Below are positions 1,077 to 23,381 of a stretch of DNA of 26,437 nucleotides, one piece after another. Location: contig CAYVPT010000001.1 in the NCBI GenBank assembly GCA_964453865.1, positions 1-26,437 on the forward strand, given 5' to 3'. The number at the start of each line of letters is the position of its first letter. Position 1 is the first letter of the stretch. This DNA is from an uncultured Dehalococcoidaceae bacterium. Its GTDB lineage: Bacteria > Chloroflexota > Dehalococcoidia > Dehalococcoidales > RBG-16-60-22. Under the pieces are notes generated by a model. It saw only the letters and a program-made list of their open reading frames with translations. It made no database searches and was not told where the DNA came from. A program made the position numbers and the translations under genes.

Positions 1077-1079
1077 GCG

Positions 1080-7088: not shown

Positions 7089-7170
7089 TTTCTGTATCCT
7101 CCGTTTAACCGTTTTGACCAAAGTATAACGTTTCATGCGATTAACTGCAACGCCGGATACTATTTATCTT

Positions 7171-7238
7171 CGGGATAAGCCGTGGATGATACGAGGGAGG
7201 TTTGGGTGGGAATAGATAACACACGAGGGGGGTGGTGG
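7171..7238 (+). repeat. G-rich dispersed repeat, copy A
   Basis: cgggataagccgtggatgatacgagggaggtttgggtgggaatagataac plus a cgaggggggtgg tail. Confidence 0.9.
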
Positions 7239-7246
7239 CTCTATTC

Positions 7247-7275
7247 TTGACAAATTTATAGCTGGCACGTATTAT
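7247..7275 (+). promoter_or_regulatory. Sigma70-type promoter
   Basis: TTGACA-N17-TATTAT immediately upstream of the ATG at 7284. Confidence 0.6.
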
Positions 7276-7283
7276 GGGAAAAC

Positions 7284-7988
7284 ATGATAAACAAGAACAA
7301 TATCTTCATCTATATCGCTCTGGTTATAACCCCAACAATTTTCCTGATTGTGGAACACTATACCCACATCGAGTTCCTGCTGCATCTGGCAGCCATACCC
7401 CTCGAGGTGCTGGTGGCGGTATTCATCGTCGAGATGTATCTCGAAAGCCGGCAGAAGAAGGAGAGACGGCGCCAATTGATGCACATCAAGAGCTGCATGT
7501 TCCGCCTGGAAATGCGTAACCTGTTCGTAGCCAATTTTATGGCTTTGAAATCGCCGCCTTTGACCATCGCCCTGATAAAAGCGGCCACCTTAGATGAACT
7601 TAAAAAGATGAGGGAGGATGCCAACAGCATCGAATACCAATCACTGGAAGCGATGGAGCCGGTTATCATGGAATACGTCGAAGCCCAGTCAGTATGGCGT
7701 AATTTCATGAATATCGCCCTGGATTACGGTTTTGACGATATCTTTCACGATATGGTATATATCCTGCATTTTATCAGCGACGTGAAGAGTTATAAAGAGA
7801 ATAATCCGGGTAAGCTGTTTATCCATAAAGCCGCCAGCCACGAGTTACTGATGCAGAAAGTAAAAAAGGTTCTGGGTGACGGCATACGCAAGTATCTGGA
7901 CTATGCGATAGAGCTCAAGGAACAACAGCCGGAACTCTTTGACGAAATAGTCGCCGATTACGAACTGGCTACCCATATAAGAAGCTAG
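7284..7988 (+). CDS. Hypothetical protein with two N-terminal transmembrane segments and a helical cytoplasmic domain
   Basis: 234 aa ORF with hydrophobic residues at about 7-24 and 30-53, followed by the basic stretch RQKKERRRQ. It has its own promoter. Confidence 0.75.
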   Translation: MINKNNIFIYIALVITPTIFLIVEHYTHIEFLLHLAAIPLEVLVAVFIVEMYLESRQKKERRRQLMHIKSCMFRLEMRNLFVANFMALKSPPLTIALIKAATLDELKKMREDANSIEYQSLEAMEPVIMEYVEAQSVWRNFMNIALDYGFDDIFHDMVYILHFISDVKSYKENNPGKLFIHKAASHELLMQKVKKVLGDGIRKYLDYAIELKEQQPELFDEIVADYELATHIRS

Positions 7989-8032
7989 CGGGGCGATATA
8001 ACGTGACCATAGTAATCAAGCTTGTAACTATG

Positions 8033-8164
8033 CTACTTCTTTGATGGGGGATTGTTGCCTCTCCCACCCCCAGATTGTTGGCCGGTCCTGCTGGGCCAAT
8101 TAGGATTACCGCCTTTTCCGCTTCCCTTGCCACCGCTCTTGTTTGCCCCACTACTTTTACTCAT
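8033..8164 (-). CDS. Small Gly/Ser/Lys-rich protein (43 aa), not in the ORF track
   Basis: AAGGAGG Shine-Dalgarno sequence 5 nt before ATG 8164. Manual translation gives MSKSSGANKSGGKGSGKGGNPNWPSRTGQQSGGGRGNNPPSKK, with a TAG stop at 8035-8033. Confidence 0.65.
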   Translation of the reverse strand: MSKSSGANKSGGKGSGKGGNPNWPSRTGQQSGGGRGNNPPSKK

Positions 8165-8363
8165 CGTTTCCTCCTTACACAAATGTATTTTTATAATGTA
8201 AGATCAATAAATATGTGGATTTTACTACCTTACTGAAAAAATGTCAGTAGTCAATAATAAAGATAATAATATGCCAAATGGCATGGGTATATGCGTTGAA
8301 TTCTATCTAAGGATCAATCCCGCCTTGTCTTTATTTGCAGTTACTGAAAAAGGGATGTAACGG

Positions 8364-8414
8364 TTGACATCACTGGCTATGTAAGCTATAATAGTTATAT
8401 ACATAGCCACAGTG
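8364..8414 (+). promoter_or_regulatory. Consensus sigma70 promoter with overlapping operator palindrome (toxin-antitoxin autoregulation site)
   Basis: TTGACA (8364-8369)-N17-TATAAT (8387-8392). The inverted repeat ggctatgta (8375-8383)/tacatagcc (8400-8408) flanks the -10, with an outer cactg/cagtg pair. Confidence 0.8.
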
Positions 8415-8424
8415 GAGGTATTCA

Positions 8425-8673
8425 ATGCCGGGTACAGGTAGCAGGTCAAGATATTTCCTGGATGTAGAACCAGAATTACGCAATCGCTTTAAGGCTTTCG
8501 CGGCTTTGCAGGGTAAGACGATGAAGGAGTGGCTAACCGAGGCTATCATCGCCAAGCTGGAGGATGAAATTGACGCAGCAGAAGGGCTGGCAACTTTAGC
8601 TGACACTGAAGGTACAATGCCATTGGCAGATTATCTTGAATCACGTAAAGACAAGGATAGCCAGTCTGAGTGA
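8425..8673 (+). CDS. Antitoxin with ribbon-helix-helix-like N-terminus and acidic C-terminus
   Basis: 82 aa (RYFLDVEPELRNRFKAFAALQGKTMKEWLTEAI) with a GGAGG RBS. Its TGA overlaps the ATG of the RelE-like gene. Confidence 0.75.
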   Translation: MPGTGSRSRYFLDVEPELRNRFKAFAALQGKTMKEWLTEAIIAKLEDEIDAAEGLATLADTEGTMPLADYLESRKDKDSQSE

Positions 8674-8930
8674 TGTATCGGATTGAATTAAGGCGGAAGG
8701 CTCAGCGTTCTTTAGATAGACTGCCCAAAGGTGATTTTGACGCAGTTATCAGCGAAATAAAGAAATTAGCCGATTCACCAAGACCGAGAGGGGTTGAAAA
8801 AATCAAACGCGCCGGTCTGTGGCGTATCCGGCAGGGAGATTACCGGATAGTCTACAGCATTGATGAAGGTCAAAAGACCGTTACAATTTTGCGTATCGGA
8901 CACCGCCGGGAAATATACAGGTCTTTTTAA
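8673..8930 (+). CDS. Type II toxin, RelE/ParE (RelE/StbE) family
   Basis: YRIEL, LADSPRPRGVEK, WRIRQGDYRIVYSID and IGHRREIYR motifs. Confidence 0.9.
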   Translation: MYRIELRRKAQRSLDRLPKGDFDAVISEIKKLADSPRPRGVEKIKRAGLWRIRQGDYRIVYSIDEGQKTVTILRIGHRREIYRSF

Positions 8931-8972
8931 TTGGAGGCTGAGTCACTGAAAATATCCGTACTAGGATAGACT

Positions 8973-9000
8973 AAAAAAGGGGAGCTTTTCGGCTCCCCTT
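8973..9000 (-). terminator. Rho-independent terminator, probably bidirectional
   Basis: 9-bp stem aaggggagc/gctcccctt with a 6-nt loop. It has a T-tract on the minus strand and a weaker T-rich tail on the plus strand. Confidence 0.85.
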
Positions 9001-9022
9001 CTGTTTTTATTTAATCGGTTAA

Positions 9023-9050
9023 GCTACCATTGAATAAACATCGGGATGTC
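9023..9050 (-). repeat. Displaced copy of the dnaN 3' end (attR-like)
   Basis: gctaccattgaataaacat (9023-9041) is identical to 10591-10609, and the match extends to 28 nt with 3 mismatches. The minus strand encodes P-M-F-I-Q-W-stop, like dnaN. Confidence 0.85.
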
Positions 9051-9244
9051 AACTCGTTTGGACTTAAATTGTCCTGCTGAGGCAGGACTACCTATTAAAG
9101 TAATTGCTTAAATTGATATGCCTCCTGCGTCCAGTTTTATGTTCGACTTGAGAATCAGAGAGGGTGGCATTAATGGTCAAATAAACCTCTTTAGTTATCA
9201 TTCTTGATACCAAACGAGGTGCTAACAAGCTATCTATTACTATA

Positions 9245-9273
9245 TTGACACATGATGTAAAGTAAACTAAAGT
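9245..9273 (+). promoter_or_regulatory. Sigma70-type promoter for the flavoprotein pair
   Basis: TTGACA-N17-TAAAGT. The taaagt hexamer is tandemly repeated around the -10. Confidence 0.55.
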
Positions 9274-9329
9274 GTACATTACTAGACTCTGGTGATACTA
9301 CTGCTGAAAAATGGTTAAGGAGGAAGGTG

Positions 9330-9881
9330 ATGAAGGTTACCATCCTAAACGGAAACCCTGGCGTAAGCGACACCAGGTTTGATGATTATTTAAATAAGCT
9401 CTCCGATGCCCTTTCGTCAGACAGCAATGAGATAACTGTCTTTACATTGAGGGATATGGACCTGAAATACTGCCGTGGTTGCTGGGGGTGCTGGGTGAAG
9501 ACACCCGGGGAGTGTGTGGTGAAAGATGATACACGCGAGATACGCCGCCAGTGCATACATTCTGATTTAGTAATTTTTGCATCACCTGTTATCATGGGAT
9601 TTACCAGTGCCCTACTCAAGAGAGCACACGAAAGACTTCTACCGCTGATTCATCCTTACTTTGAACTCGTAGATGGCGTAGTACGCCACTTAGCAAGGTA
9701 TGATAAATATCCGCTTATGGCACTTCTTCTGGAAAAGGGGGAAGACGTTGATGAGGAAGACATTAAAATCATCTCCGATATTTATAGACGGGACGCTATA
9801 AATTTTAAGACTTCATTTTGTTTTACCAGGTTCACCAGCGATCCCACAGAGGAGGTAGCAAATGAAATTAACGGTCTTTAA
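9330..9881 (+). CDS. Iron-sulfur flavoprotein / NADPH-dependent FMN reductase family (flavodoxin fold)
   Basis: MKVTILNGNP, the CRGCWGCWVKTPGEC 4Fe-4S motif and DLVIFASPV. An AAGGAGG RBS precedes the ATG. Confidence 0.85.
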   Translation: MKVTILNGNPGVSDTRFDDYLNKLSDALSSDSNEITVFTLRDMDLKYCRGCWGCWVKTPGECVVKDDTREIRRQCIHSDLVIFASPVIMGFTSALLKRAHERLLPLIHPYFELVDGVVRHLARYDKYPLMALLLEKGEDVDEEDIKIISDIYRRDAINFKTSFCFTRFTSDPTEEVANEINGL

Positions 9882-10530
9882 CGGCTCCCCGCGTGGTAAA
9901 AGCAGTAACACCAGAGTTTTTATGGAACATTTCCTGAACGGTTTCACGACAACAGAGGGGAATACATACGAGATAGCCTATCTGAAAGATGTGAAAGATA
10001 GGGATACCTTTATCAGGCTATTCCAAGAGGCAGAGCAAGTGATACTGGCATTGCCTCTATATGCGGATGCCATGCCGGCGGCGGCGAAAGACTTTATAGA
10101 GTTGTTGGAACCGCTTTGCCAGAGGGAAGGCAATCCCGACATCGGATTTTTTGTGCAGTCCGGGTTTCCAGAACCAGAGCACTCCCGTTATCTGGAGCGG
10201 TACTACGTGAAACTGGCAAAACGCCTGGGGTGCCGGTACAAAGGCACGATAATCAGGGGCGGCGGTGAGAACCTAAGGATAATGCCAAGGTTGATGAACC
10301 GGAGACTGTTAAAAGCCTTCTACAAGCTTGGTGAGGCATTTGGCAAAACCGGGGAATTTGACAAAAAGATGGTGGCTAACCTGACCAAACCGGAGAGATT
10401 GTCCAAACTGATGTTCTGGATTATGAGAATTTTAGGCCCCAAAATGTACTGGAACCCGATGCTAAAGAAAAACAATGCCTATGAAAAGCGCTTCGACAAG
10501 CCTTATGCGGTTGAAGTGAAGACTGACTGA
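9862..10530 (+). CDS. NAD(P)H-dependent oxidoreductase, flavodoxin-fold family
   Basis: FNGSPRGKSSNT, LALPLYADAMP and QSGFPE motifs. It overlaps the upstream gene by 20 nt. Confidence 0.82.
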   Translation: MKLTVFNGSPRGKSSNTRVFMEHFLNGFTTTEGNTYEIAYLKDVKDRDTFIRLFQEAEQVILALPLYADAMPAAAKDFIELLEPLCQREGNPDIGFFVQSGFPEPEHSRYLERYYVKLAKRLGCRYKGTIIRGGGENLRIMPRLMNRRLLKAFYKLGEAFGKTGEFDKKMVANLTKPERLSKLMFWIMRILGPKMYWNPMLKKNNAYEKRFDKPYAVEVKTD

Positions 10531-10571
10531 GAAAGAAGAAAGAGGGAGGCTTATGTTACCTGGCCCCCCTT
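10531..10571 (-). terminator. Terminator-like hairpin just downstream of dnaN, inside the islet
   Basis: The minus strand reads aggggggc..gcctccct followed by the pyrimidine tail ctttcttctttc. The stem is imperfect. Confidence 0.4.
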
Positions 10572-10591
10572 GCCGCTATCAGCTGATGTTG

Positions 10592-11725
10592 CTACCATTG
10601 AATAAACATGGGCATGACGACGTGGATGTAGTTTTCCGTGCCGACCGGGCGCAGGAGGCCGGGACTGGAGGGATTGTTGGTTTCCAGGGCTACCTGGGCT
10701 TCCTCAAGGACGCTTAAGACATCAATCAGGTATTTACCGTTAAAGGCAATCTTGGACTCGTCGCCTTCAACGGTGGCGTCGATTTCGCCGACATCGTCAC
10801 CAATCTCTTCGGAGCGGGCGGAAACGGAAAGCTTGCCGGGATTGGTCTCGCTCCCCGGTGTTATTATCAGGCGGACGGTGCCACTGCCGTCCCGGGCAAA
10901 GATAGAGGCTGTCCGGGTGGCCCGGAGGAAATCGGCGACGCTGACAATCATGCGGGTGGTATAGCTCTGGGGGATAATCTGGGAGTAGTTGGGGAAGGTG
11001 CCCTGGACCAGCTGCGATACCAGTTCGACACTCTTAAGGCGGAAGAGTACCTGGCTTTTATCGGGATTAAGGGTGATGCTTACGGTTTCTTCCTCATCGG
11101 CCATGAGACGGTTCAGCTCGGATAACGTACGCGCCGGAATAATAACCTCGGTCTTCTCTTTTATCTCATCGGCGATGGGCAGCTTATAGACAGCCAAACG
11201 AAAGCCGTCAGCCGCGGCCAGCGTTAATGTCTTGCCTTCAAACTGGGCGCAGACGCCGGTAAGGACCGGACGTGATTCTTCTGTGGCGGCGGCGAAGGCG
11301 ACCTGCTCGATTGCCTGACGCAGGGCTTCGACTTCGACAGTGGTGGTAATGCCTTCATCGACGCTGGGAATCGGGGGGAATTCCTTGGCATCGACGCCGC
11401 TGATGCGGGCTTCGAACCGGGCGCATTTAAGACCCAGGGTCTTGGTCTGCGGCGAAAGCTGAACGGAAATCGTGTCACTGGGTAGAGAACTGACGAATTC
11501 GGTGAGAAGGCGGGCAGGTACGGTGATGGTCCCTTCGTCCTCTATCTTTACGCCTATCCAGCAACTGATGGCCATTTCCAGGTTGGTAGCCACCAGTTTC
11601 AATCGACCATCATCGGTAGCCAGCAGGACATTGTTTGTTATGGGCAGCGTCGTCTTGGTGGCGACCGCCCTGCCGACGATACCGAGTCCCCGGTTCAGAT
11701 TCTCCTGAAGACATGATAATTTCAT
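10592..11725 (-). CDS. dnaN: DNA polymerase III beta sliding clamp
   Basis: 377 aa with ATNLE, LAAADGFRLA, GTFPNYSQIIP, IAFNGKYLIDVL and YIHVVMPM motifs. Confidence 0.97.
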   Translation of the reverse strand: MKLSCLQENLNRGLGIVGRAVATKTTLPITNNVLLATDDGRLKLVATNLEMAISCWIGVKIEDEGTITVPARLLTEFVSSLPSDTISVQLSPQTKTLGLKCARFEARISGVDAKEFPPIPSVDEGITTTVEVEALRQAIEQVAFAAATEESRPVLTGVCAQFEGKTLTLAAADGFRLAVYKLPIADEIKEKTEVIIPARTLSELNRLMADEEETVSITLNPDKSQVLFRLKSVELVSQLVQGTFPNYSQIIPQSYTTRMIVSVADFLRATRTASIFARDGSGTVRLIITPGSETNPGKLSVSARSEEIGDDVGEIDATVEGDESKIAFNGKYLIDVLSVLEEAQVALETNNPSSPGLLRPVGTENYIHVVMPMFIQW

Positions 11726-11775
11726 GATGCACCCCCAAATTCTATTGGTGGACTAGTATACAACATAATCCGGTT

Positions 11776-12258
11776 CTATTCAAGCTCTATAGTGCCGCTC
11801 TTACCGCCGCTTTTGCGTACCAGGCGGATGTTCTCTATTTTCATACCGCGGTCGACGGCCTTGCACATATCGTATATCGTCAGGGCGGTAACCGTGGTGG
11901 CGGTCAACGCCTCCATCTCCACGCCGGTTTTACCGGTACTCTCGACGGTGGCGGTAATTTCTATGGTGCTGCTGGCTTCATCGGGGTTGAAATCGATAAT
12001 GACATTACCGATGAGCAACGGATGGCAAAGCGGAATAAGGTCAGGCGTGCGCTTGGCGGCCATGATACCGGCCAGTTTGGCAACGGAGAGGACATCGCCC
12101 TTTTTAGTGCCACCCTGCTGGATTGACTTAAAGGTGGCTGGCTGCATCCGTACGATGCCCCTGGCCACAGCCACGCGGGCGGTATCCGCCTTGGCGGTGA
12201 CATCCACCATCTTGGGTCGACCGGCATCGTCCAGGTGGGTCAGCTTTTTATCAGCCAT
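11776..12258 (-). CDS. moaC: Cyclic pyranopterin monophosphate synthase MoaC
   Basis: [34 protein letters not shown] and IYDMCKAVD motifs. Confidence 0.97.
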
Positions 12259-12355
12259 ATAACACCTTTTTAAGGAAACAATTCGTAGCTGGCTAGCTTT
12301 GAATTATTTTTCGAGTTATGTTAATTAAATGCCTGGAGGAGATATTTATTATTTA

Positions 12356-12437
12356 CCTCACCCCCTGTATCCCCCTCTCCTTACGAGGCTGGGAGAGGGA
12401 GAGTGGGAAGTCCTGGAAGAGGGGCTTCGCCCCTCTC
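12356..12437. repeat. Composite C-rich/G-rich palindrome with a gaggggcttcgcccctc module
   Basis: Same architecture as the reverse complement of 22494-22600 and as 23021-23097. Confidence 0.75.
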
Positions 12438-12499
12438 AGACGCCCCCTGTGTTTGTATCTTCCTTACCCCGATCTCTCCCATCTGGGGAGAGGGCTTAT

Positions 12500-12526
12500 C
12501 TGGATTCCCGCCTTCGCGGGAATGAC
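12500..12526. repeat. ATTCCC-N8-GGGAAT palindrome (dRS3-like REP)
   Basis: ctggattcccgccttcgcgggaatgac. It is preceded by another hairpin, ctctcccatctggggagag. Confidence 0.8.
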
Positions 12527-12536
12527 GGTTTTATTG

Positions 12537-13484
12537 TTATCCGCCTACCTGGGAAAAGGGACGGCCGTTGCGCTTTTTACCCTCGGCCAGGTGGTGGCTC
12601 TGCGGTTTCCTGGCAACGGCTTGCTCGATGAGTTCTTTAAGATCTTCCGTAGAGGCGCCGCGGCGCAGGGGCTCCCGGAGGTCTACTTCCTCTTCGCTGA
12701 GTAGGCAGGGACGCAATTTACCGTCGGCGGTGAGGCGGAGTCGATTGCACTGGTAGCAAAAGTGCTCGGTGACAGGAGTGATGAAGCCGATGGTGCCGTT
12801 AGCGCCGGGCAGACGGAAGTATTTGGCAGGGCCGTTGCCGACATCTAACTTCCAGGGCTCCAGCGCGCCCAGCGATTCGATTCGTTTTCTCATTTCGCTA
12901 ACAGCAAAAAGCCTGGTGGCAATCGGTTCTTCGCCGTTGACGGGCATGTGCTCGATGAAACGCACGTGCCAGCCATTGTTGATGGTCTTCCGGGCAAAAT
13001 CGGGGAGCTCATCGTCGTTAACCCCCGCCATGACGACCATGTTGATTTTTACGGGCTCGAGTCCAGCCGTATGGGCGGCTTTAATGCCGCGGAGGGTATC
13101 TTCAAGTTCACCGCAGCGGGTAATCCGGCGGAACCTCTCCGGCCGAAGGGTATCCAGGCTGATATTGACGCGGCGCAGTCCGGCTTTTTTAAGTTCGACG
13201 GCGTGCTGAGCCAGCAAAATTCCGTTAGTCGTTAGAGAAATATCGTCAATAGTATCAATACCCGCCAGCATTTTAACGAGGTCGGCAACTCCCGTCCTGA
13301 CCAGGGGTTCGCCGCCGGTAATCCTGATTTTATTAATGCCGAGTTGAGCGGCAACTCTGGCCACGGTATGGATTTCTTCATAGGTGAGGATATCGCCGTA
13401 GACGCAGCGCAGATTGCAGCGGTCCGTCACCGAGATGCGCAGGTAGTTTATAGGGCGCTGAAATGAATCGGAAATTCCGGTCAT
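12537..13484 (-). CDS. moaA: GTP 3',8-cyclase MoaA with an apparent in-frame deletion in the radical-SAM motif (possibly inactive)
   Basis: YLRISVTDRCNLRC, TGGEP, the C-terminal cluster FCYQCNRLR..C and a terminal GG. The CxxxCxxC motif lacks its third Cys (CNLRCVYGDIL). Confidence 0.9.
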   Translation of the reverse strand: MTGISDSFQRPINYLRISVTDRCNLRCVYGDILTYEEIHTVARVAAQLGINKIRITGGEPLVRTGVADLVKMLAGIDTIDDISLTTNGILLAQHAVELKKAGLRRVNISLDTLRPERFRRITRCGELEDTLRGIKAAHTAGLEPVKINMVVMAGVNDDELPDFARKTINNGWHVRFIEHMPVNGEEPIATRLFAVSEMRKRIESLGALEPWKLDVGNGPAKYFRLPGANGTIGFITPVTEHFCYQCNRLRLTADGKLRPCLLSEEEVDLREPLRRGASTEDLKELIEQAVARKPQSHHLAEGKKRNGRPFSQVGG

Positions 13485-13620
13485 TATGATACCTTCCAAT
13501 GGGTATTATACAGGAAAACGCTGTAGCAAGCCAGAAAGGGGGAGGGAGTGTTTGATATATTGAGGTAAAGAGTTTAGAATGATGCGGCGCAGGGGAATGC
13601 AGATAGAAGTTGATATCTTA

Positions 13621-13668
13621 CGGGCTAAGCCGTTGATGATACGAGGGCGGCCGGGTGGGATGGATAGA
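13621..13668 (+). repeat. G-rich dispersed repeat, copy B
   Basis: cgggctaagccgttgatgatacgagggcggccgggtgggatggataga. Confidence 0.85.
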
Positions 13669-13670
13669 AA

Positions 13671-13739
13671 TCTCCCTTTTCCAAAAGGGGGACAGTAAAA
13701 ATCACCCTCACCTTGCCCTCTCCCATCAAGGGAGAGGGG
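13671..13739. repeat. Two REP-like hairpins
   Basis: tctcccttttccaaaaggggga and tcaccctcaccttgccctctcccatcaagggagagggg. The latter is nearly identical to 23121-23159. Confidence 0.8.
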
Positions 13740-13747
13740 TAAAAACT

Positions 13748-13815
13748 CAGGGCTAAGCTGTAGATGATGCGAGGGTGGCTAGGGTGGGAATAGATAACAT
13801 ACGGAAGGGGTGGGG
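13748..13815 (+). repeat. G-rich dispersed repeat, copy C
   Basis: cagggctaagctgtagatgatgcgagggtggctagggtgggaatagataac plus a G-rich tail. Confidence 0.85.
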
Positions 13816-13825
13816 AACATATAGA

Positions 13826-14845
13826 GTGGATAAGTTCACTCAGGAAATAAGAGAGAAAGCCGGAGAGTCATCCTTCTCAGGGGTGGTGGCGGTATACCGG
13901 GGTAAAAAGGCATTATACCGGGAGGCGTTCGGGTACGCTGATATCGCCAACAAAAGGAAAAACAACGTAAAAACGAAGTTTGCCATCGCTTCCGGTACGA
14001 AGTTTTTCACCGCCCTGGGCATCGGCGCGTTAATCGACGCCGGTAAGCTGTCGCTGGATACCAATGTCCGGGAGATATTTCATCGGGATTTCTCTTATAT
14101 AGACTCGCGGGCTACTATAGCCCAGCTCCTGACGCATACCTCCGGCATATACGACTACTATGACGAGGACCTGGACATAGACCCGGAGAATTTCCACGTA
14201 GATATCCCGTGGTACCATCTGGAAACGCCTTCCGATTATTTACCGCTTTTTGAAAATAAAAGAGCGAAATACTCCCCGGGCGAACGCTTTTCTTACTCTA
14301 ACGGCGGGTTCATCCTGGCCGGCGTTATCATCGAACGAATCACCGGGCAGCTATATCGCGACTATATACGCGAGCACGTGTTCGCTACGGCAGGCATGGA
14401 TGACTCCGGGTATTACGCCTTTAACCGGCTTCCGGAAAATACGGCTTACGGCTATAAAAAGGGTCGGAACGGCGCACCCGAGACCAATATCTACAATCTG
14501 CCGGTGCGGGGGGCGTCCGACGGAGGGGCGTATACCACCGCCGACGACCTCCATAAGTTCTGGAGGGCATTATTTAATAACCGGATTCTTTCTAAAAAAC
14601 TCACCGGAACGTTTTTAACACCTCATGTCATTGTTGATGAGCCGATCGAGTACGGATACGGAGTGTATATTTCCAAATATAGCGGGATGGACATGTTTTT
14701 CATCGTCGGTGGGGATGCAGGAGTAGGTTTCGATTCCCGATACATCCCGGAAAAAGAGTTGCAGGTAACCATCATGTCCAACCATTCTGACGGCGAAGAA
14801 AAAATCAGAGACGTGATATACCCCGGGCTGGAGAAGATTCTGTAG
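13826..14845 (+). CDS. Serine hydrolase, beta-lactamase/AmpC-like peptidase family
   Basis: SxxK (ASGTK), LLTHTSG, YSN and GGD motifs. The start is set at GTG 13826 because the ORF-track extension only reads through repeat copy C. Confidence 0.88.
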   Translation: MDKFTQEIREKAGESSFSGVVAVYRGKKALYREAFGYADIANKRKNNVKTKFAIASGTKFFTALGIGALIDAGKLSLDTNVREIFHRDFSYIDSRATIAQLLTHTSGIYDYYDEDLDIDPENFHVDIPWYHLETPSDYLPLFENKRAKYSPGERFSYSNGGFILAGVIIERITGQLYRDYIREHVFATAGMDDSGYYAFNRLPENTAYGYKKGRNGAPETNIYNLPVRGASDGGAYTTADDLHKFWRALFNNRILSKKLTGTFLTPHVIVDEPIEYGYGVYISKYSGMDMFFIVGGDAGVGFDSRYIPEKELQVTIMSNHSDGEEKIRDVIYPGLEKIL

Positions 14846-14850
14846 CCGTC

Positions 14851-14927
14851 CGGGCTAAGCCGTAAATGACACGAGGGCGGCCCGGGTGGGAAAAGATAAC
14901 AGACGATAGGGGGTAAAGGGGGGAGGA
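14851..14927 (+). repeat. G-rich dispersed repeat, copy D
   Basis: cgggctaagccgtaaatgacacgagggcggcccgggtgggaaaagataac. Its tail ends in GGAGGAG, the RBS of the next gene. Confidence 0.88.
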
Positions 14928-14930
14928 GAA

Positions 14931-15590: not shown

Positions 15591-15709
15591 ATAATAAAAC
15601 TCATCACTTTACAAATCAATTCCCACCTTCGGCTGAAAGCCATTTACAGCAAAAGAAGTCAAGATATAGTTATTTCTATTGTTTTATACTTAACCCGGGA
15701 GGTGAGAAC

Positions 15710-16637: not shown

Positions 16638-16671
16638 ATTACGGGAAACGCAGGTCAGAGTAAAACGGACA

Positions 16672-17280
16672 TCAGCCGCCGGGCTGACTTATCATGAGAG
16701 AGTTGCGGGCTTTAGCCGCCGCCCGCGCCCGGTGGCTGATTTTATTCTTTTCTTCCGGTGGCAGCTCGGCGAATGTTTTACCCAGTTCCGGAACGAAAAA
16801 GACGGGGTCGTAGCCGAAGCCCTGATTGCCCCTCGGTGTGGTGGTGATTACTCCCCGGCACTCGTCGGAGAAAAACTCAACTATGCCACCAGGTTCGGCG
16901 ATGGCTATAACACATCGAAAGCGGCCCGTACGATTGCCTTCGGGTATATCCTTGAGTTTATCGAGCAGGTAGTTGATTCTATCCGAATCCGAAGCGTCCT
17001 CGCCGGCATAGCGGGCGGACAGTACTCCCGGCTCGCCGCCGAGTACATCAACCTCCAGGCCGGAATCGTCAGCCAGCGTCAACAGTCCGCTTTCCGCAGC
17101 CAGAGACACAGCCTTCAGCCGGGCGTTTTCTGCAAAGCTCCCTCCGGTTTCCTCGACTTCCGTGATGATGCCCTGCTCAGCCGGTGTCACTATTTTATAA
17201 GGGATGCCCCGGAGCAGGCTTTTGTACTCGCGTACCTTGCCCTTGTTATTGGTGGCCAGCAGGAGCTTTTTTCGCTTCAT
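16672..17280 (-). CDS. rdgB: Non-canonical purine NTP pyrophosphatase (RdgB/HAM1)
   Basis: ATNNKGK, DDSGL, PGVLSAR, FGYDP and KNKISHR motifs. Confidence 0.96.
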   Translation of the reverse strand: MKRKKLLLATNNKGKVREYKSLLRGIPYKIVTPAEQGIITEVEETGGSFAENARLKAVSLAAESGLLTLADDSGLEVDVLGGEPGVLSARYAGEDASDSDRINYLLDKLKDIPEGNRTGRFRCVIAIAEPGGIVEFFSDECRGVITTTPRGNQGFGYDPVFFVPELGKTFAELPPEEKNKISHRARAAAKARNSLMISQPGG

Positions 17281-17366
17281 ACGGAGTCCCTTTTTCGTAA
17301 TTATAAAGGAAGCCGCAGCTTAATGCTACGGCTTCGTGTTTTTACCTGCTAATATTCCGCTCAGGT

Positions 17367-18464: not shown

Positions 18465-18478
18465 GGGGTACCTCCATT

Positions 18479-19021
18479 TTAATATTCGATTCCCTTGCGG
18501 GCTTTGATACCTTTCTCAAATGGATGTTTGACATTTACCATCTCGGTTACAAGGTCGGCCATCTCCAGCATGCGGTCGTTAGCATAACGACCGGTAAGGA
18601 TAAGCTCGACATGGGGTGGTTTTTCTTCGATGAGCTTGATGACGTCATCAAGTTCGATGAGTTTGTATTCTAGGGCGACATTTATTTCATCGAGCACCAC
18701 GAGGTCATGGTGACCGCTGTTAACGGCCTGACGCGCGGCTGCCAGGGCTTTCTCCGCCTGTTCTTTTTCCTCCGGCTTGACATTGAGTGGGTCGGTAAAT
18801 TCCCTGAAGCCGGATTTGAGTACCTCGACATTGGGGAGTTTCAGCAGGGTTTCAAATTCGCCATAGGAATAATCGCCCTTCATGAAAAAAACAATGAAAA
18901 TTCTAAGACCGTGACCGGCCGCCCTGAGTATGGTACCCAGCGCTGCTGTCGTCTTGCCCTTACCGTTGCCGGTAAAGATCTGGACCAGCCCCCTAGCGTT
19001 TTCAGCAGTCACTTGATTCAT
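18479..19021 (-). CDS. cobO: Cob(I)yrinic acid a,c-diamide adenosyltransferase (CobO/BtuR type)
   Basis: FTGNGKGKTTAALG P-loop, LDEINVAL, LILTGR, ADLVTEM and GIEY C-terminus. Confidence 0.93.
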   Translation of the reverse strand: MNQVTAENARGLVQIFTGNGKGKTTAALGTILRAAGHGLRIFIVFFMKGDYSYGEFETLLKLPNVEVLKSGFREFTDPLNVKPEEKEQAEKALAAARQAVNSGHHDLVVLDEINVALEYKLIELDDVIKLIEEKPPHVELILTGRYANDRMLEMADLVTEMVNVKHPFEKGIKARKGIEY

Positions 19022-19266
19022 TACTCCAGAAAATGGATGACCTGAGTAATCCCCAAGATATTCTATACATCATACCGTGTTAAACATGTAGGAATAGGAT
19101 AGAAATGAGTAGAATTTTTCTCCCGGGCAGTGCAGGCCTGGTAAGGGCTTGCTCTGATGTGCTGGTGCCTTAAGTCCAGAAAGCGTGATGAGACCCCGTT
19201 TCTTAAGGTAATTATCGGACAAACACAACAAAACCTCTTGTTATCATCGTTCTGTGTGTTTTTTAT

Positions 19267-19304
19267 AGTTTATCAATAAACCGTGGAATTGTCAACTGTA
19301 TACA
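19267..19304 (-). promoter_or_regulatory. Sigma70-type promoter about 240 nt upstream of cobO, with an adjacent TGTATACA palindrome
   Basis: The minus strand reads TTGACA (19295-19290)-N17-TAAACT (19272-19267). tgtataca lies at 19297-19304. Confidence 0.55.
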
Positions 19305-19334
19305 AACGTTCGCGGATAATTGGACTACTGGCGG

Positions 19335-19907
19335 TTATGGTGCCTGGTGTATAGCTTTTAGTCTTATCCTGAAGAAGGTGGTTATACCTGTCAGGGCGGG
19401 CAAGGCAATACCGTAAATTACGAGCACCCCCGGCACTTTAAGCCACCAGTCCACGAGGGGCAGCATGATAAAAAGAAAAGCCATGGACGGGGTAACATTC
19501 CTTCTTATGATGAGGATTAAGATAGTGGGTAATGCCAGTATGAGCATGGGCAGGGTTACCAGGACCAGCAGAACGCCGATGGTGGTACTCACACCGCGTC
19601 CGCCCCGGAATCCCAGGAAGACCGGCCAGTTGTGGCCGATGACGGCGGCGGCGCCGGTGAAGAGGACAACGGTCTGGGACATATTGGTTGCCTGAGCGAT
19701 AAGTACCACCGCCGCCCCCTTGGCGGCATCGATAATGCCTACCAGCATGCCCGCGGTGGGCCCAAGTTCGCGGTAGGCGTTGGCGGCACCGGCGTTTTCA
19801 TCGCCTATCTGCCGGATATCTTTCCCTTTCAGAAACTGCCCGGCGAGATAAGCGGTGGGCAGGGAGCCGAAAACATAACCTATTAAGATTACCAGCCAGA
19901 CGGGCAT
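19335..19907 (-). CDS. plsY: Glycerol-3-phosphate acyltransferase PlsY
   Basis: GYVFGSLP, DIRQIGDENAGAAN, DAAKG and GHNWPVFLGFRGGRGV motifs. The ORF-track extension runs through the tRNA, so the start is set at ATG 19907. Confidence 0.9.
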   Translation of the reverse strand: MPVWLVILIGYVFGSLPTAYLAGQFLKGKDIRQIGDENAGAANAYRELGPTAGMLVGIIDAAKGAAVVLIAQATNMSQTVVLFTGAAAVIGHNWPVFLGFRGGRGVSTTIGVLLVLVTLPMLILALPTILILIIRRNVTPSMAFLFIMLPLVDWWLKVPGVLVIYGIALPALTGITTFFRIRLKAIHQAP

Positions 19908-19922
19908 GTCACACTCCATTAG

Positions 19923-20006
<84 letters not shown>

Positions 20007-20018
20007 ATATATAGAGTA

Positions 20019-20047
20019 ATTGTATTGGCAAATAGGGAGGGTGTCAA
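20019..20047 (-). promoter_or_regulatory. Promoter of tRNA-Leu(-plsY)
   Basis: TTGACA-N17-TACAAT on the minus strand, just upstream of the tRNA. Confidence 0.7.
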
Positions 20048-20115
20048 GACTGGTATGTGCGGGTACGATTGATTTTTCTACTCTACCCAATGTTTACCTC
20101 TACCTTTTTACGAAA

Positions 20116-20157
20116 TCTATTCCCCTAGCCCCCTTCCTTTGTCAAAGGAAGGGGGAA
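20116..20157. repeat. REP-like hairpin
   Basis: tctattcccctagcccccttcctttgtcaaaggaagggggaa. Confidence 0.7.
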
Positions 20158-20327
20158 CATTAACAAAGGGAATCTTACTCATTGAAGCGTTGTGCAAAAC
20201 AGGTCAGTACCGGGAATGATTGAAAGATGACGCCGCCTCCTTCTTCCCCCACTTGGGAAAAGAGTAGGAAACACTTAACCGGACAGACCAGTACTGTCTT
20301 CCATCGGCCTGGATGTAAGGAACAAAA

Positions 20328-20360
20328 TCCCCCTTAATCCCCCTTTTTCAAAGGGGGAAA
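20328..20360. repeat. REP-like hairpin
   Basis: tcccccttaatccccctttttcaaagggggaaa. Confidence 0.7.
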
Positions 20361-20381
20361 TTTAGCAGGGAAAAAAGACTA

Positions 20382-20447
20382 CGGGCTAAGCCGTGGATGA
20401 TGCGAGGGCGGTTCGGGTGGGAATAGATAACATCGAGGGGTGGAGGG
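20382..20447 (+). repeat. G-rich dispersed repeat, copy E
   Basis: cgggctaagccgtggatgatgcgagggcggttcgggtgggaatagataacatcgaggggtggaggg. Confidence 0.9.
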
Positions 20448-20461
20448 ACAAAGTAAATGAC

Positions 20462-21079
20462 TTACCGGTGTGAGTTGCGGAATGACTTCATTTTACGGGC
20501 GTGTTTATGAAAAGTACCCTCTACCGCTTTCGTGGCGGGTTTATCCGGGGGGGGATTGGGGGCGTTCGACTGACCGGTTGGGGCCGGTTTTTCCCCCTGG
20601 GGTTTTGATGGACTCCCGGGATCATTTTTGTCACTGGCCCTGGCCGGTTTTTCCGGTGCCGGAGATTTTTGAGCAAGCCAGGCTTTATTAAGAGCCATAC
20701 CGATAAGACCGGCAATTACCTTGGTAAGGTCGGACGTTTGTTTGTAGAAACGTTTCTTATTGCGTGAGGCAATCCCCAGGATGCCGTGGATGTGGTAGGT
20801 CATCATAGGAGCGGCCACCATCCATTTGAAACCTGCATCAGGAAAAGATGACAGTCCGTACAACCCGTCGTTGGAAAGGTCGGGGATAACGATTTCGTTC
20901 CCCAGGCCGATGATTTGCTTGCTGAAGCGGTGGTTGGTATCTATCCTGACGATTTCATGCTTCATTTCCGGGGAAAATCCACGGTACGCCGCCAGTGATA
21001 ATATCCGCTTACGGGTATCGTAAGTCTGCACCCAGCAGCACTCCGTCTTCAATACCTGAGAAAGCGTATCCAGAGTCAT
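20462..21079 (-). CDS. Stand-alone GAF-domain protein with low-complexity C-terminal tail (true start may lie upstream)
   Basis: GAF-like pattern LSLAAYRG..IVIPDL..WMVAAPM..HGILGIASR..IAGLIGMAL, followed by a Pro/Ser/Lys-rich tail. Confidence 0.75.
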   Translation of the reverse strand: MTLDTLSQVLKTECCWVQTYDTRKRILSLAAYRGFSPEMKHEIVRIDTNHRFSKQIIGLGNEIVIPDLSNDGLYGLSSFPDAGFKWMVAAPMMTYHIHGILGIASRNKKRFYKQTSDLTKVIAGLIGMALNKAWLAQKSPAPEKPARASDKNDPGSPSKPQGEKPAPTGQSNAPNPPPDKPATKAVEGTFHKHARKMKSFRNSHR

Positions 21080-21314
21080 ATCCAGGAGCTTCTGGGGCTC
21101 ATTGGAGAGGGCTAATACCTCGTTGATATCCCTGATAGTGGTGAAAACGCTGTCGATTTTGATTTCAGAAGGTCCTCTTGAGAATTATAACGAATTTTCC
21201 AAATATATAAAAGTCGGCGACCTGTACTTTAAGCAAATTGTCTATATATATTATTATCATATATAGCGGGGAGATTTCCACAAAATACAGGAGTTAAAAA
21301 AAAGGGGGGTGATC

Positions 21315-21836
21315 ATGGAAACGCACGAAATGCTATCGAACGCTTACGGCGGTATATTGAGGACGCTGGAATATACCTTGGAAGGGCTAACCGAAGAAGA
21401 CCTGAACTGGCAGCCGAAGCACGACTGCAACAGTATCGGCTGGCTGGTCTGGCACCTGACCCGCTGGCAGGATGTTCAGTTCTCCTCTTTTATCGGTAAG
21501 GAACAGCTCTGGATAGAGGCGGGATGGCATAAAAAGTTCAACCGGCCGGCCGACCCCAAAGACAGCGGCACGGGTAGCAAGCCGGAGGACATCGCCAAAT
21601 TCAAATCCCCGGATGCTAAAACATTACTCGGTTACCAGCGGGTGGTACTGGAAAGGGCGCAGCAATGCTTCCCCACCCTGAAAAAAGCTGACCTGGATAA
21701 AATAGTTGAAGGTACGCCTTTCAAACCCCCGCCAACGTTCGGGATGATGCTGATTGTAACATTAAGCGATGGTATGCAGCACGCCGGGCAGGCGGCTTAT
21801 ATACGGGGCTTGCGCCAGGGGTTCGGCTGGCATTAA
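21315..21836 (+). CDS. DinB family (DinB_2) four-helix-bundle protein
   Basis: LNWQP..CNSIGWLVWHL and QHAGQAAYIRG, carrying the His ligands typical of DinB/YfiT proteins. Confidence 0.88.
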   Translation: METHEMLSNAYGGILRTLEYTLEGLTEEDLNWQPKHDCNSIGWLVWHLTRWQDVQFSSFIGKEQLWIEAGWHKKFNRPADPKDSGTGSKPEDIAKFKSPDAKTLLGYQRVVLERAQQCFPTLKKADLDKIVEGTPFKPPPTFGMMLIVTLSDGMQHAGQAAYIRGLRQGFGWH

Positions 21837-21921
21837 AAATACATAATGAATGACCGGGCAATATCGGTAAAAATCCTGGGAAAATATTGACAAATCGGTA
21901 TTTTCGTATTATTATGCGCAA

Positions 21922-22179
21922 ATGACAATGGAAGACAAAGTCATTAAGCCCCGGTTTGTCAAGGGACAGAAGGTCATTATCAAGCCTGTCAGCGAGTCCG
22001 GCATGTCCCAGCGGGAAAACGATATCAACCAGTACGCCGGTCAGGTCGGCGAGGTCTCCAATTACCACTGGATAAGCCCGCGCACCGGCCAGGTATTCTA
22101 TATCTACAACGTGAGTGTCGGCGCCAAAAAGAAAGAGATAGTCGTCTACGAGGACGAGATGGAACCCCGTTTAATCTGA
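21922..22179 (+). CDS. Small hypothetical protein, possibly SH3/KOW-like beta barrel
   Basis: 85 aa (PRFVKGQKVIIK..YAGQVGEV..YNV..EIVVYEDEME) preceded by TTGACA at 21886 and a TATTAT -10. Confidence 0.7.
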   Translation: MTMEDKVIKPRFVKGQKVIIKPVSESGMSQRENDINQYAGQVGEVSNYHWISPRTGQVFYIYNVSVGAKKKEIVVYEDEMEPRLI

Positions 22180-22195
22180 GAAGACGGCGGTAGAG

Positions 22196-22236
22196 AATAA
22201 ACGCGGGTTACCGGAAAAGCGGTAGCCCGCGTTATT
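22196..22236. terminator. Bidirectional terminator between the small ORF and tRNA-Cys
   Basis: 13-bp stem acgcgggttaccg/cggtagcccgcgt with A/T-rich flanks on both sides. Confidence 0.75.
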
Positions 22237-22249
22237 GTTTTAAGGGGAG

Positions 22250-22325
22250 TGGAGGCGACGGGCGGATTCGAACCGCCGAATAGGGATTTTGCAGACCCCC
22301 GCCTTAACCTCTTGGCCACGTCGCC
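22250..22325 (-). tRNA. tRNA-Cys (anticodon GCA), CCA encoded
   Basis: Acceptor stem ggcgacg/cgtcgcc, anticodon arm ggggt-ctGCAaa-atccc, T-arm ggcgg-TTCGAAT-ccgcc and a U73 discriminator. Confidence 0.96.
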
Positions 22326-22339
22326 TGGCTACATCCTAC

Positions 22340-22368
22340 ATTCTAAGCTAAAACGTAAAATGATGCAA
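22340..22368 (-). promoter_or_regulatory. Promoter of tRNA-Cys
   Basis: TTGCAT-N17-TAGAAT on the minus strand. Confidence 0.65.
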
Positions 22369-22407
22369 TATACATTTTAAAGGGTCCCGTTTGCCTCTGG
22401 TTGATAC

Positions 22408-22600
22408 GTTCAAACCTCACCCCTAACCCCTCTCCAGCCAGAGACACCGGTAAGGAACCACAGATATTTATGGCTGCAGAGGGGATCTCAGGAGAGAGGG
22501 GGCGAAGCCCCCTCTCATATACTCTCCCCCTCTTGAACATCCTGTAAAATCGAGTTAAAAGGATAAGACTGTTCGAGAGGGGGATAAAGGGGGTGATTAT
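22408..22600. repeat. Expanded composite palindromic element (MITE/REP-like)
   Basis: Its ends match the 1774-1862 element in inverted orientation. It contains inner hairpins, including gagagggggcgaagccccctctc (22494-22516). Confidence 0.8.
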
Positions 22601-22629
22601 TAGAAGAGACCAGATGCAAATAATACCTA

Positions 22630-22926
22630 CTAAAGCCGGCGGGTGAGGAACCATTTCTTAAGCTCGGGGTTGGTAAGCTTGGTACCGCGGTCGTAGTACA
22701 TTTCATATACCTCGCCCTCCGTGGTCTTGACGCGGTAGTAGTTGCGGTGGTGGCGGTGGTACCATTTCTTACGTTTAGGCGGGATATTGCCGTAGCCGTG
22801 GTCCGGCCAGAACTCCAGGACTTCGGCGACCTGATATTCGCGGTCATCGATGCGGAAAGACACCGGGGCTTTAACGTCCCCGCCGGTGGCGACCTCTATC
22901 TGTTTGGCGAAAAAGTTCTCGGGCAT
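22630..22926 (-). CDS. DUF6504-like small protein
   Basis: PVSF..DREYQV.EVLEFW..W..RNYYRVKT.EG.VYEMYYD..W.L pattern. The start is set at ATG 22926. Confidence 0.65.
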   Translation of the reverse strand: MPENFFAKQIEVATGGDVKAPVSFRIDDREYQVAEVLEFWPDHGYGNIPPKRKKWYHRHHRNYYRVKTTEGEVYEMYYDRGTKLTNPELKKWFLTRRL

Positions 22927-23020
22927 GGTGAAAAATACCTCAGTGATTATGCTAGCGGGGAATGGGAGAAGTGTCAATGGGGGGGGGTTATTTTTTCCTC
23001 ACCCCTTTTTTTCAGGTGAA

Positions 23021-23097
23021 CCTATCCCCCTGTGTCCCCCTTCCCTTGAGGATTAATGAAGGGAAGGGGGAGTAATTTAAAAGAGGGGCTGACGCCC
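23021..23097. repeat. Composite C-rich/G-rich palindrome
   Basis: cccccttccctt..gaagggaaggggg followed by a degenerate gaggggctgacgccc module. Confidence 0.7.
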
Positions 23098-23120
23098 ATC
23101 TTGCTGCGCAATTCCCGTTT

Positions 23121-23159
23121 TCACCCTCACCCTTACCCTCTCCCATCAAGGGAGAGGGG
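23121..23159. repeat. REP-like hairpin
   Basis: tcaccctcacccttaccctctcccatcaagggagagggg. Its last 24 nt are identical to those of 13702-13739. Confidence 0.82.
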
Positions 23160-23169
23160 ATATTAACTA

Positions 23170-23239
23170 CGGGATAAGCCGTGGATGAAACTGGGCGGAC
23201 TGGGTGGGAATAGATAAAAACCGAGGGGAGTGGAGGGGG
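23170..23239 (+). repeat. G-rich dispersed repeat, copy F
   Basis: cgggataagccgtggatgaaactgggcggactgggtgggaatagataa plus a cgaggggagtggaggggg tail. Confidence 0.88.
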
Positions 23240-23290: not shown

Positions 23291-23381
23291 AATAAGAAGT
23301 GGGAAAGACGCCGCCATTTACAGCTTACCCCTCTTTTTGGTAATCTAAGACGTAAAATTGCCCCGGCGCGGGAGGTGACGT

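Follow-up and report, generated by a model that had tools for sequence, protein, structure and literature searches.

A G-rich, non-palindromic interspersed repeat restricted to a Dehalococcoidales subclade

Six intergenic copies of the repeat in one contig

Contig CAYVPT010000001.1 of an uncultured Dehalococcoidaceae bacterium (assembly GCA_964453865.1) carries six copies of a short G-rich repeat, all six of them intergenic and on the + strand. The window, by which we mean the whole contig of 26,437 nt, is otherwise ordinary: the genes neighbouring the copies encode MoaA, serine beta-lactamase-like, metallo-beta-lactamase-fold, AraC regulator, GAF, DinB and PurM proteins, the DnaN clamp and EF-P, and no transposase or integrase was found among the window genes. 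The repeat is genuine and apparently undescribed, since it has no Rfam match and a literature search returned no described Dehalococcoidia repeat of matching kind. We tentatively interpret it as a non-autonomous interspersed repeat of this lineage.

An earlier reading of the sequence (the original prediction) had listed six copies and a consensus. Repeat detection grouped these six as one family (D1/D2), and a degenerate 36-nt pattern, TAAGCYGTNNATGA-N4-5-GGGNGG-N2-3-GGGTGGGA, matched the window exactly six times, always on the + strand, compared with no match in 100 dinucleotide shuffles. A profile hidden Markov model (HMM) trained on 66 non-redundant copies recovered the same six at 49–61 bits (E = 1e-14 to 1e-18). 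With filters off and a cutoff of E ≤ 50, the next match on either strand had E = 0.56, so that even relaxed thresholds reveal no additional copy in the window, on the reverse strand or otherwise. The positions, the shared orientation and the consensus given earlier are therefore accurate, as is the description of five copies with a CGAGGGG..TGG tail; the sixth (13621) is truncated after GGGTGGGA. The copies and the modules beside them are as follows.

7161..7236, + strand: copy 1, solo core with G-run tail; 61.0 bits
13606..13673, + strand: copy 2, core ending after GGGTGGGA, without tail; 48.6 bits
13672..13738, no strand assigned: companion hairpin modules between copies 2 and 3, CTCCCTTTTCCAAAAGGGGGA, then CACCCTCACC, then CCCTCTCCC-ATCAA-GGGAGAGGG
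13735..13812, + strand: copy 3, full core with tail; 57.7 bits
14840..14913, + strand: copy 4, beginning 5 nt past the stop codon of the beta-lactamase-like gene; 55.8 bits
20097..20358, no strand assigned: mosaic 5' of copy 5, with C-run/G-run hairpins at 20131-20157 and 20339-20358; weak evidence
20371..20443, + strand: copy 5, core with tail; 60.6 bits
23156..23232, + strand: copy 6, CTGGG-subtype core with tail; 61.2 bits

Several copies lie close to gene starts or ends. Copy 1 is 35 nt from the start codon of a divergent gene on the - strand (6183-7136) and directly 5' of a TTGACA-N17-TATTAT promoter-like site for the + strand gene at 7284. Copy 2 is the first unit of an inserted block of ~235 nt (about 13619-13830) in the 5' leader of the beta-lactamase-like gene; within the same leader, the copy 3 tail GGGGTGGGG lies ~10 nt before the GTG/ATG of that gene and would be able to serve as its ribosome-binding site. 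The tail of copy 4 leads into the start region (Shine-Dalgarno sequence, then ATG) of the metallo-beta-lactamase-fold gene (14931), and the GAF gene on the opposite strand (20462-21079) has its stop codon ~20 nt from the end of the copy 5 tail. The mosaic preceding copy 5 includes a faint, non-significant remnant of a reverse-strand core 3' end (20103-20130; HMM E = 2.7) and may, on this weak evidence, be a decayed head-to-head doublet. Copy 6 closes, on the right, a mosaic of ~330 nt (about 22980-23310) between the divergent promoters of a DUF6504 gene and purM.

Anatomy of the unit and its mosaics

The core of ~50 nt, CGGGMTAAGCCGTRGATGAYRC(GA/T)GGGYGG-N2-3-GGGTGGGAAWAGATAAC, spans CGGGM to AGATAAC. 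In most copies aaCGA and a G-run come next, and on the 5' side there is often a G-run with an A/T-rich spacer. The whole is a G-rich, non-palindromic unit of 50–90 nt with about 33 conserved positions. Because the strict pattern by which copies were collected inflates the apparent invariance of the core, part of this invariance is forced by the search; copies found only by synteny differ at 2–4 'invariant' positions, mostly in the 5' half. Two length variants, CGAGGG and CTGGG, occur side by side in most genomes. GGGTGGG follows a spacer whose length depends on the genome: 2 nt, reading 'CA', in the assemblies CAYWRT (14/21), CAYWAU (6/7) and DAOUDZ (3/4), but 3 nt, variable and rich in pyrimidines, in the window, CAYNDI, CAZCOB and DAOUEP.

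The two flanks of the unit differ markedly. The 150 nt upstream yielded 706 BLAST high-scoring segment pairs among copies, compared with 74 for the 150 nt downstream, and GC-rich perfect hairpins stand upstream of 44/103 copies and downstream of 12/103. The upstream hairpins fall into families that lie at variable distances: AAGAGGGGC-N4-GCCCCTCTT; CCCTCTCCC-ATCAA-GGGAGAGGG, often after CACCCTCACC; and TCCCCCTCTCC..GGAGAGGGGGA. The tail typically lies 11–100 nt from a gene boundary, with ~200 nt to the next gene on the other side. The core is thus usually the gene-proximal end module of intergenic mosaics made of other hairpin repeats.

Close pairs of copies comprised 16 in tandem, eight head-to-head and none tail-to-tail (8:0, p about 0.008). 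Head-to-head doublets form long imperfect palindromes of tail, core, spacer and G/C-run in L013, L037, L046 and L055 (L-numbers denote loci retrieved from other genomes, mostly ~8-kb pieces of metagenome-assembled genomes, MAGs), and tandem arrays have a variable period of 69–139 nt. At L055 641-960, three head-to-tail units of 107–113 nt (core plus a spacer including CTCTCTATAACTCTCTATGGGGCG) are nearly identical, which points to recent amplification of a tandem at this locus, whereas the dispersed copies are old.

The window also holds other repeats. C-run/G-run perfect hairpins of one family occur in the window at 13716-13738, 23136-23158, 12467-12495, 20131-20157, 20339-20358 and 23035-23072, and the hairpin CCCTCTCCC-ATCAA-GGGAGAGGG led by CACCCTCACC precedes the copies at 13749 and 23170 as well as copies in L036 and L144. 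A separate 54-nt repeat (GGAGAGGGGTCAGGGGTGAGGTTTGAAC...) is present once per strand, at 1821-1874 and 22396-22449, with 87% complementarity, and C-run/G-run words akin to it lie at 12358-12379 and 22575-22596. A third, palindromic family (GGATTCCAGC...GCTGGAATGACA, with variants such as GATTCTTCGC..GCTCAGAATGACA) occurs in the window at 23239-23292 and 4039-4063 and also in L006, L017, L023, L026, L063 and L148 (3736-3765), often immediately 3' of the G-rich element. In two MAGs (L022 5728-5800 and L025 1517-1590), the core meets, on its 3' side, the 3' end of a tRNA gene on the opposite strand, whose G-rich acceptor/T-arm sequence stands in for the usual G-run tail.

Distribution across Dehalococcoidales

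The family extends well beyond this contig. We scanned the GTDB species representatives once with the strict pattern and then ran nhmmer on the retrieved stretches and the window. The pattern found 63 stretches in 19 species-level MAGs, all labelled Dehalococcoidales, Dehalococcoidaceae, Dehalococcoidia or Chloroflexota, and nhmmer identified 125 copies in these stretches and the window, or 135 in about 0.5 Mb once syntenic loci fetched through PurM and reductase homologues were included. Conversely, 80 metagenome loci of more distant relatives (543,681 nt) near homologues of the beta-lactamase-like gene at 51–81% identity held no copy, except in one fragment from the same organism, and IMG/VR viral contigs gave no match, on which ground a phage or provirus origin was rejected. 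The family is restricted to a Dehalococcoidales subclade, for which it provides a marker.

Copy density varies between loci: six in 26 kb in the window, four in 21 kb in L144, three in 15 kb in L148, two in 21–22 kb in L146 and L150, and none in 18 kb in L149. Many copies lie less than 100 nt from contig ends. This is the pattern that a multi-copy repeat produces when it interrupts assembly, and the repeat is a nuisance for the contiguity of MAGs. In the window, about one intergenic region in five holds a copy (6 copies, 26 kb). Dehalococcoidales genomes are small and streamlined; given this, the share of intergenic regions occupied and the presence in at least 19 species, the repeat is unlikely to be inert.

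Gain, loss and constraint at orthologous sites

Three sets of filled and empty orthologous sites show that copies are gained and lost between species. The interval between moaA and the beta-lactamase-like gene measures ~235 nt in the window, with two copies and two hairpin modules, vs 13 nt in L058, where the promoter-like segment and the gene start align with those of the window; the corresponding site in L070 is also empty. Between the DUF6504 gene and purM, the 330-nt mosaic ending in copy 6 in the window corresponds to 8 nt in L144 and 4 nt in L146, while L148 has a different, 70-nt palindromic repeat there. Between tilS and a DUF2344 gene, L148 (the same sequence as L009) carries a 300-nt mosaic vs 40 nt in L144 and L146. 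Since a complex 50-nt sequence cannot recur by point mutation, these sites indirectly show that the element spreads by some duplicative or insertional process. The predicted presence/absence polymorphism is therefore real, and so is the non-autonomous character of the spread, there being no transposase in the window or adjoining the copies. The comparison of the window with L058 allows a possible GGGGAA duplication, which is inseparable from the G-rich tail itself, and the DUF6504/purM and tilS/DUF2344 sites are multi-module.

Other copies are old and shared between genomes. Orthologues of copy 4 lie upstream of the metallo-beta-lactamase-fold gene in L058, L144 and L150, although the gene upstream of them differs (bla in the window and L058, none in L144, a HAD gene in L150), and in L146, as well as in decayed form in L144, an orthologue of copy 5 adjoins the 3' end of the GAF gene. 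Orthologous cores located by synteny are 70–86% identical, whereas the 4-fold degenerate sites of the flanking genes are 33–69% identical; the clearest case is the window vs L146, with core identity of 0.80 vs 0.33 at 4-fold sites. Selection, or some process of homogenisation, must therefore maintain the core, even though some copies are eroding (L144 7317, L148 6992 and 14597).

Within genomes, copies are 0.75–0.85 identical, barely above the 0.75 between genomes, and no near-identical copies were found; the nearest neighbour of a copy came from the same MAG 27 times vs 15.6 expected. These values argue for mild lineage-specific homogeneity and against a recent burst. Together with the saturation of variable positions and the ~33 fixed orthologous positions, the lack of bursts implies that the copies are not simply decaying junk.

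The slot of the beta-lactamase-like gene deserves separate description. This gene (13832-14845) sits between two direct copies of the repeat (window 13735-14913). L144 (3036) lacks the gene and has a single copy between the same promoter-like segment and the metallo-beta-lactamase-fold gene, and in L150 (19382) a HAD hydrolase gene occupies the slot. This arrangement suggests repeat-mediated deletion or cassette-like exchange, and the repeat appears to drive local change in gene content, the beta-lactamase-like gene being missing from relatives that have just one copy there. At the moaA/beta-lactamase site of a more distant relative (L069 8790-9880), a 1.1-kb AT-rich insertion with reverse-strand open reading frames (ORFs) and no repeat represents a second kind of insertion at the same spot.

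Orientation relative to genes and replication

The shared orientation of the six window copies had been given a chance of 1 in 32. Because the copies at 13621 and 13749 belong to one inserted block, the window offers five independent sites and the figure becomes 1/16. That orientation disregards neighbouring genes, as had also been claimed, is only weakly shown by the window, where four or five of the six copies lie upstream of + strand genes, but is borne out family-wide: gene contexts, taken from a simple greedy and hence crude ORF map, were opposite/opposite in 17 cases, same/same in 15, divergent in 11 and convergent in eight, and local gene-strand bias showed no correlation with orientation (rho = -0.12, p = 0.33).

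Orientation correlates in part with nucleotide skew. In the region syntenic to the window, ten independent sites in five genomes comprised nine + and one - copy (two-sided binomial p about 0.02), and GC skew was positive on the + strand in all loci of this region. Across the family, with elements masked, the element lay on the G-rich strand in 41/63 loci (p = 0.023); coding-strand-corrected GC skew at third codon positions (GC3) correlated with net orientation (Spearman 0.35, p = 0.004), with 80/128 copies on the G3-rich strand and agreement in 29/42 loci at |skew| > 0.05. Non-adjacent neighbouring copies were co-oriented 30:13, and both orientations were found inside single 8-kb loci. The strand polarity noted in the window is therefore real but partial: strong in the window-syntenic region (9:1), it is only a bias of about 65–70% relative to GC skew family-wide, the G-rich strand of the element lying preferentially on the G-rich, presumably leading, strand of the chromosome. 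Skew in short pieces of fragmented MAGs served to assign the leading strand; as estimates from 8-kb pieces are noisy, the actual bias could exceed these figures. Should the polarity reverse at the replication origin and terminus (ori/ter), it would offer a simple way to orient contigs of uncultivated genomes.

Structure and identities ruled out

The only self-complementarity in the unit is a 5' hairpin of 4–6 bp, (YT)ACGG-GMTAAG-CCGT(RG), as the original prediction had stated. In its extended form (YTACGG/CCGTRG) this hairpin is pairable in 85% of cells, no better than in column shuffles. RNAalifold on 50 copies predicted five pairs without any compensatory change, and a possible GCCGU/GYGGY helix is 98% pairable with one-sided variation. 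When single sequences were folded, z-scores ranged from -0.6 to -2.1 on the G-rich strand and from +0.5 to -1.3 on the C-rich one. At gathering thresholds Rfam detected only two tRNAs in the window and hence no family match for the repeat; the best overlaps at E ≤ 10 were the sub-threshold aspS RNA (17.9 bits; threshold 42.5) and RAGATH-10 (17.8 bits; threshold 41.2). A structured RNA was rejected from these folds and pair counts, which showed neither covariation nor significant stability in either strand or helix. A repeated small RNA, one of the identities proposed earlier, is likewise unlikely, as structure, covariation and a conserved promoter were all missing; the copy profile contained no promoter-like block accompanying the unit. 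By eye, the A/T spacer and AGATAAC did not pair consistently among copies.

Further candidates were discarded, and the view that the repeat is no terminator, CRISPR repeat or classical palindromic REP was upheld. A coding mini-ORF is incompatible with 1-nt length polymorphisms inside the core, and a promoter- or leader-only explanation with the random orientation relative to genes. The copies do not form a CRISPR array, being 63–90% identical, mostly kilobases apart and variable in tandem period. They are not integron attC sites: they lack dyad symmetry, their flanks are housekeeping genes on both strands, and AGATAAC/GTTATCT matches only the AAC/GTT part of the attC boxes. No feature supported a dif site or a tRNA- or tmRNA-derived element.

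Interpretation

Our tentative preference, to which we grant somewhat less than an even chance, goes to a non-autonomous interspersed repeat that is confined to this Dehalococcoidales lineage, has a non-palindromic unit and lives in the manner of REP/REPIN or BIME elements. This explanation rests on copies that are intergenic, modular, arranged as singlets, tandems and inverted doublets, persistent, constrained and without an adjacent enzyme. A sequence-specific protein that acts in trans and is encoded elsewhere would read the ~33 conserved positions; most likely it is a single-copy, vertically inherited (domesticated) transposase or recombinase, and such a protein could both propagate the element and explain its long-term conservation. 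The orientation bias would arise if the reaction acts on whichever strand the replication fork exposes, or if selection removes G-rich copies in the wrong orientation. Some copies have probably been co-opted: in the window, the genes at 13832 and 14931 would take their Shine-Dalgarno sequences from the tails, and in other genomes reverse copies lie between a stop codon and an intrinsic terminator. The REPIN-RAYT system provides a precedent for vertically inherited, long-persisting repeat populations (PMC3116915; bioRxiv 10.1101/2022.05.22.493013). If a dedicated protein does read the G-rich strand, the REPIN/RAYT paradigm would extend to a non-palindromic unit and to Chloroflexota.

Several observations weigh against this explanation. 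The unit itself is not palindromic; doublets hold only 16/135 copies, 88% of copies being singlet or tandem, and the window has no doublet. Neither a target-site duplication nor sharp element ends were definable at the filled and empty sites. The strand bias, measured on fragmented MAGs, is incomplete. Clustering of 494 ORFs and Pfam scans revealed housekeeping genes only, with no recurrent neighbour, no transposase and no other mobilising or binding protein, so that a copy adjoining a transposase-type gene, as once suggested, did not come to light. A tblastn search of 1.09 Mb of loci with Y1/RAYT queries (IS200, IS608 and E. coli RAYT) gave no match at E < 0.8, a weak negative drawn from pieces of about 8 kb of the MAGs. 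Finally, the lack of near-identical copies, unlike a transposing MITE or a REPIN master population, fits independently selected functional sites equally well.

The main rival, which we consider unlikely, is a host-selected oriented DNA site whose core binds a chromosome-organising, segregation or repair factor, or embeds a KOPS/Chi-type polar word; selection would retain it in each intergenic region, duplication serving only to make new sites. A site of this kind would account for a core constrained in situ well above synonymous sites, for variable positions that are saturated within one genome while ~33 others are fixed, for the missing burst signature and for an orientation that tracks replicative skew rather than genes; conserved blocks at roughly 10-bp spacing (alignment by eye) and G-rich octamers such as GGGTGGGA, which resemble FtsK/SpoIIIE-type polar words in appearance only, point the same way. 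However, known polar or organising sites measure 8–20 bp, not 50 bp, and a spaced signal would be expected neither to form tandem arrays and inverted doublets nor to differ several-fold in density (6/26 kb in the window, 2/22 kb in L150, 0/18 kb in L149). The decay of some orthologous copies (L144 7317, L148 6992 and 14597) and the 30–35% of copies in the 'wrong' orientation are also difficult to reconcile with it. We see a slim chance that the repeat is a new oriented chromosomal signal, a ~50-nt core whose G-rich strand is read at the replication fork by a lineage-specific protein and whose copies are maintained by host-level selection, not by selfish transposition. Candidates for the reader are a nuclease or recombinase that has been domesticated and a factor associated with the fork or with segregation; the filled and empty sites, the partial polarity and the constraint in situ are compatible with such a signal.

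Descent from IS200/IS605 elements, as a PATE or RAYT-type derivative whose 5' hairpin is recognised on the G-rich top strand by a Y1 HUH transposase and inserted into the lagging-strand template, appears improbable. The direction of the bias is as expected if the G-rich strand is on the lagging-strand template (mechanism for IS608: PMC5027513), a short 5' hairpin follows a semi-conserved YTAC, and head-to-head doublets recall REPINs; yet the single hairpin of 4–6 bp shows no covariation and has no counterpart at the 3' end, most conserved information resides in unpaired G-rich blocks, no conserved 4–5-nt target was definable at empty sites, and no Y1 or RAYT gene appeared in the 1.09 Mb probed, again a weak negative. 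As orientation bias has been reported for many insertion sequence families (PMC3971601), it is not diagnostic of this one, and with nothing in its favour beyond strand bias, the IS200/IS605-PATE origin is best regarded as one possible version of the trans-acting-protein reading. An element acting in RNA, whether a cis-acting leader or 3' untranslated region motif, a multi-copy small RNA, or a C-rich reverse strand that terminates opposing transcription like a Rho-utilisation (rut) site, is a weak alternative of low probability. Several copies lie in 5' leaders with the tail as Shine-Dalgarno sequence (window 13749 and 14851; L004, L051, L052, L058), and in about half of the copies the reverse complement falls between an opposite-strand stop codon and a T-run terminator hairpin (L044, L049, L060, L057). 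The C-rich reverse strand is almost unstructured (-2.5 to -6.6 kcal/mol per 80 nt in 4/5 copies), and Y-only variation opposite G in the possible GCCGU/GYGGY helix is compatible with RNA pairing. Against this, random orientation with respect to flanking genes leaves no favoured transcript sense, no conserved promoter, Rfam match or compensatory change was found, folding z-scores were -0.1 to -2.1, and a rut-like role would depend on base composition alone and would not call for 33 fixed bases. A G-quadruplex acting on replication or transcription is very improbable: despite conserved G3 tracts (GGGYGG..GGGTGGG, with G-runs on both sides) and tails that exceed the G4Hunter value of 1.5 in the copies at 14851 and 23170, the core stays below 1.5 and has no canonical four-tract motif, for which reason the identity was rejected, and the conserved non-G blocks TAAGCCGT, GATGA and AGATAAC would be left unexplained.

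Comparison with described systems places the family closest to REP/REPIN-RAYT (TnpA_REP) and BIME elements of enterobacteria and pseudomonads, which are likewise short and extragenic, lie among housekeeping genes, and form singlets, inverted doublets and clusters in mosaic with other motifs; the repeat, too, is inferred to reach hundreds of copies per genome. As with REP/REPIN-RAYT, the repeat persists across related species in lineage-specific subtypes without an adjacent transposase. In contrast to REP/REPIN, the Dehalococcoidales unit is not a 20–40-nt imperfect palindrome, no conserved 5' GTAG was seen, doublets are a minority (16/135), a dominant master sequence is lacking and the strand bias is apparently replication-related. 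MITEs (Correia/CREE, RUP, Nezha) share the non-autonomous, intergenic and polymorphic character, and the head-to-head doublets resemble terminal inverted repeats with unique DNA outside; however, most copies here are single directional 'half' units with inverted partners only in eight doublets, no target-site duplication was definable and no related autonomous insertion sequence was found, there was no burst, and retained copies are constrained.

PATE and IS200/IS605 ends are similarly asymmetric, with a small 5' hairpin and an orientation bias that in the repeat is apparently replication-related, but have two subterminal hairpins, which the repeat lacks, and a defined tetra- or pentanucleotide target, of which none was found for the repeat; no TnpA or TnpB was seen. 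Pneumococcal BOX (boxA-B-C), Rhizobium RIME and mycobacterial MIRU elements also consist of ordered modules in fixed relative orientation, one of them tandemly reiterated (69–139 nt here), lie between operon genes and sometimes supply translational signals; they differ in that the present repeat has no sequence similarity to them, combines G-run/C-run hairpins with an unpaired G-rich core and is confined to a Dehalococcoidales subclade. Polar words (FtsK KOPS GGGNAGGG, Chi) are G-rich, enriched on what is presumed to be the leading strand and similarly biased (about 65–90%), whereas these are 5–8-nt words mostly inside genes and the Dehalococcoidales unit is 50–90 nt long and strictly intergenic.

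Other features of the window

Between the copy at 7171 and dnaN, a ParD/ParE toxin-antitoxin pair (8425-8930; Pfam E = 1e-6 and 4e-14) is followed by two FMN-reductase-like genes. The segment around it (within 8000-10000) has a G+C content of 0.42–0.44 vs about 0.52 elsewhere and may have been horizontally acquired. The block encoding LDH, an old-yellow-enzyme-type reductase, EF-P and an EpmA-like protein (147-7136) is inverted relative to the dnaN-moaC-moaA block in L150 (7941-13678). The - strand of the window (10592-13499) carries moaA and moaC and, immediately 3' of them, dnaN for the beta subunit of DNA polymerase III; there is no dnaA nearby, and this dnaN-moaC-moaA arrangement is conserved in L144, L150, L068 and L069.

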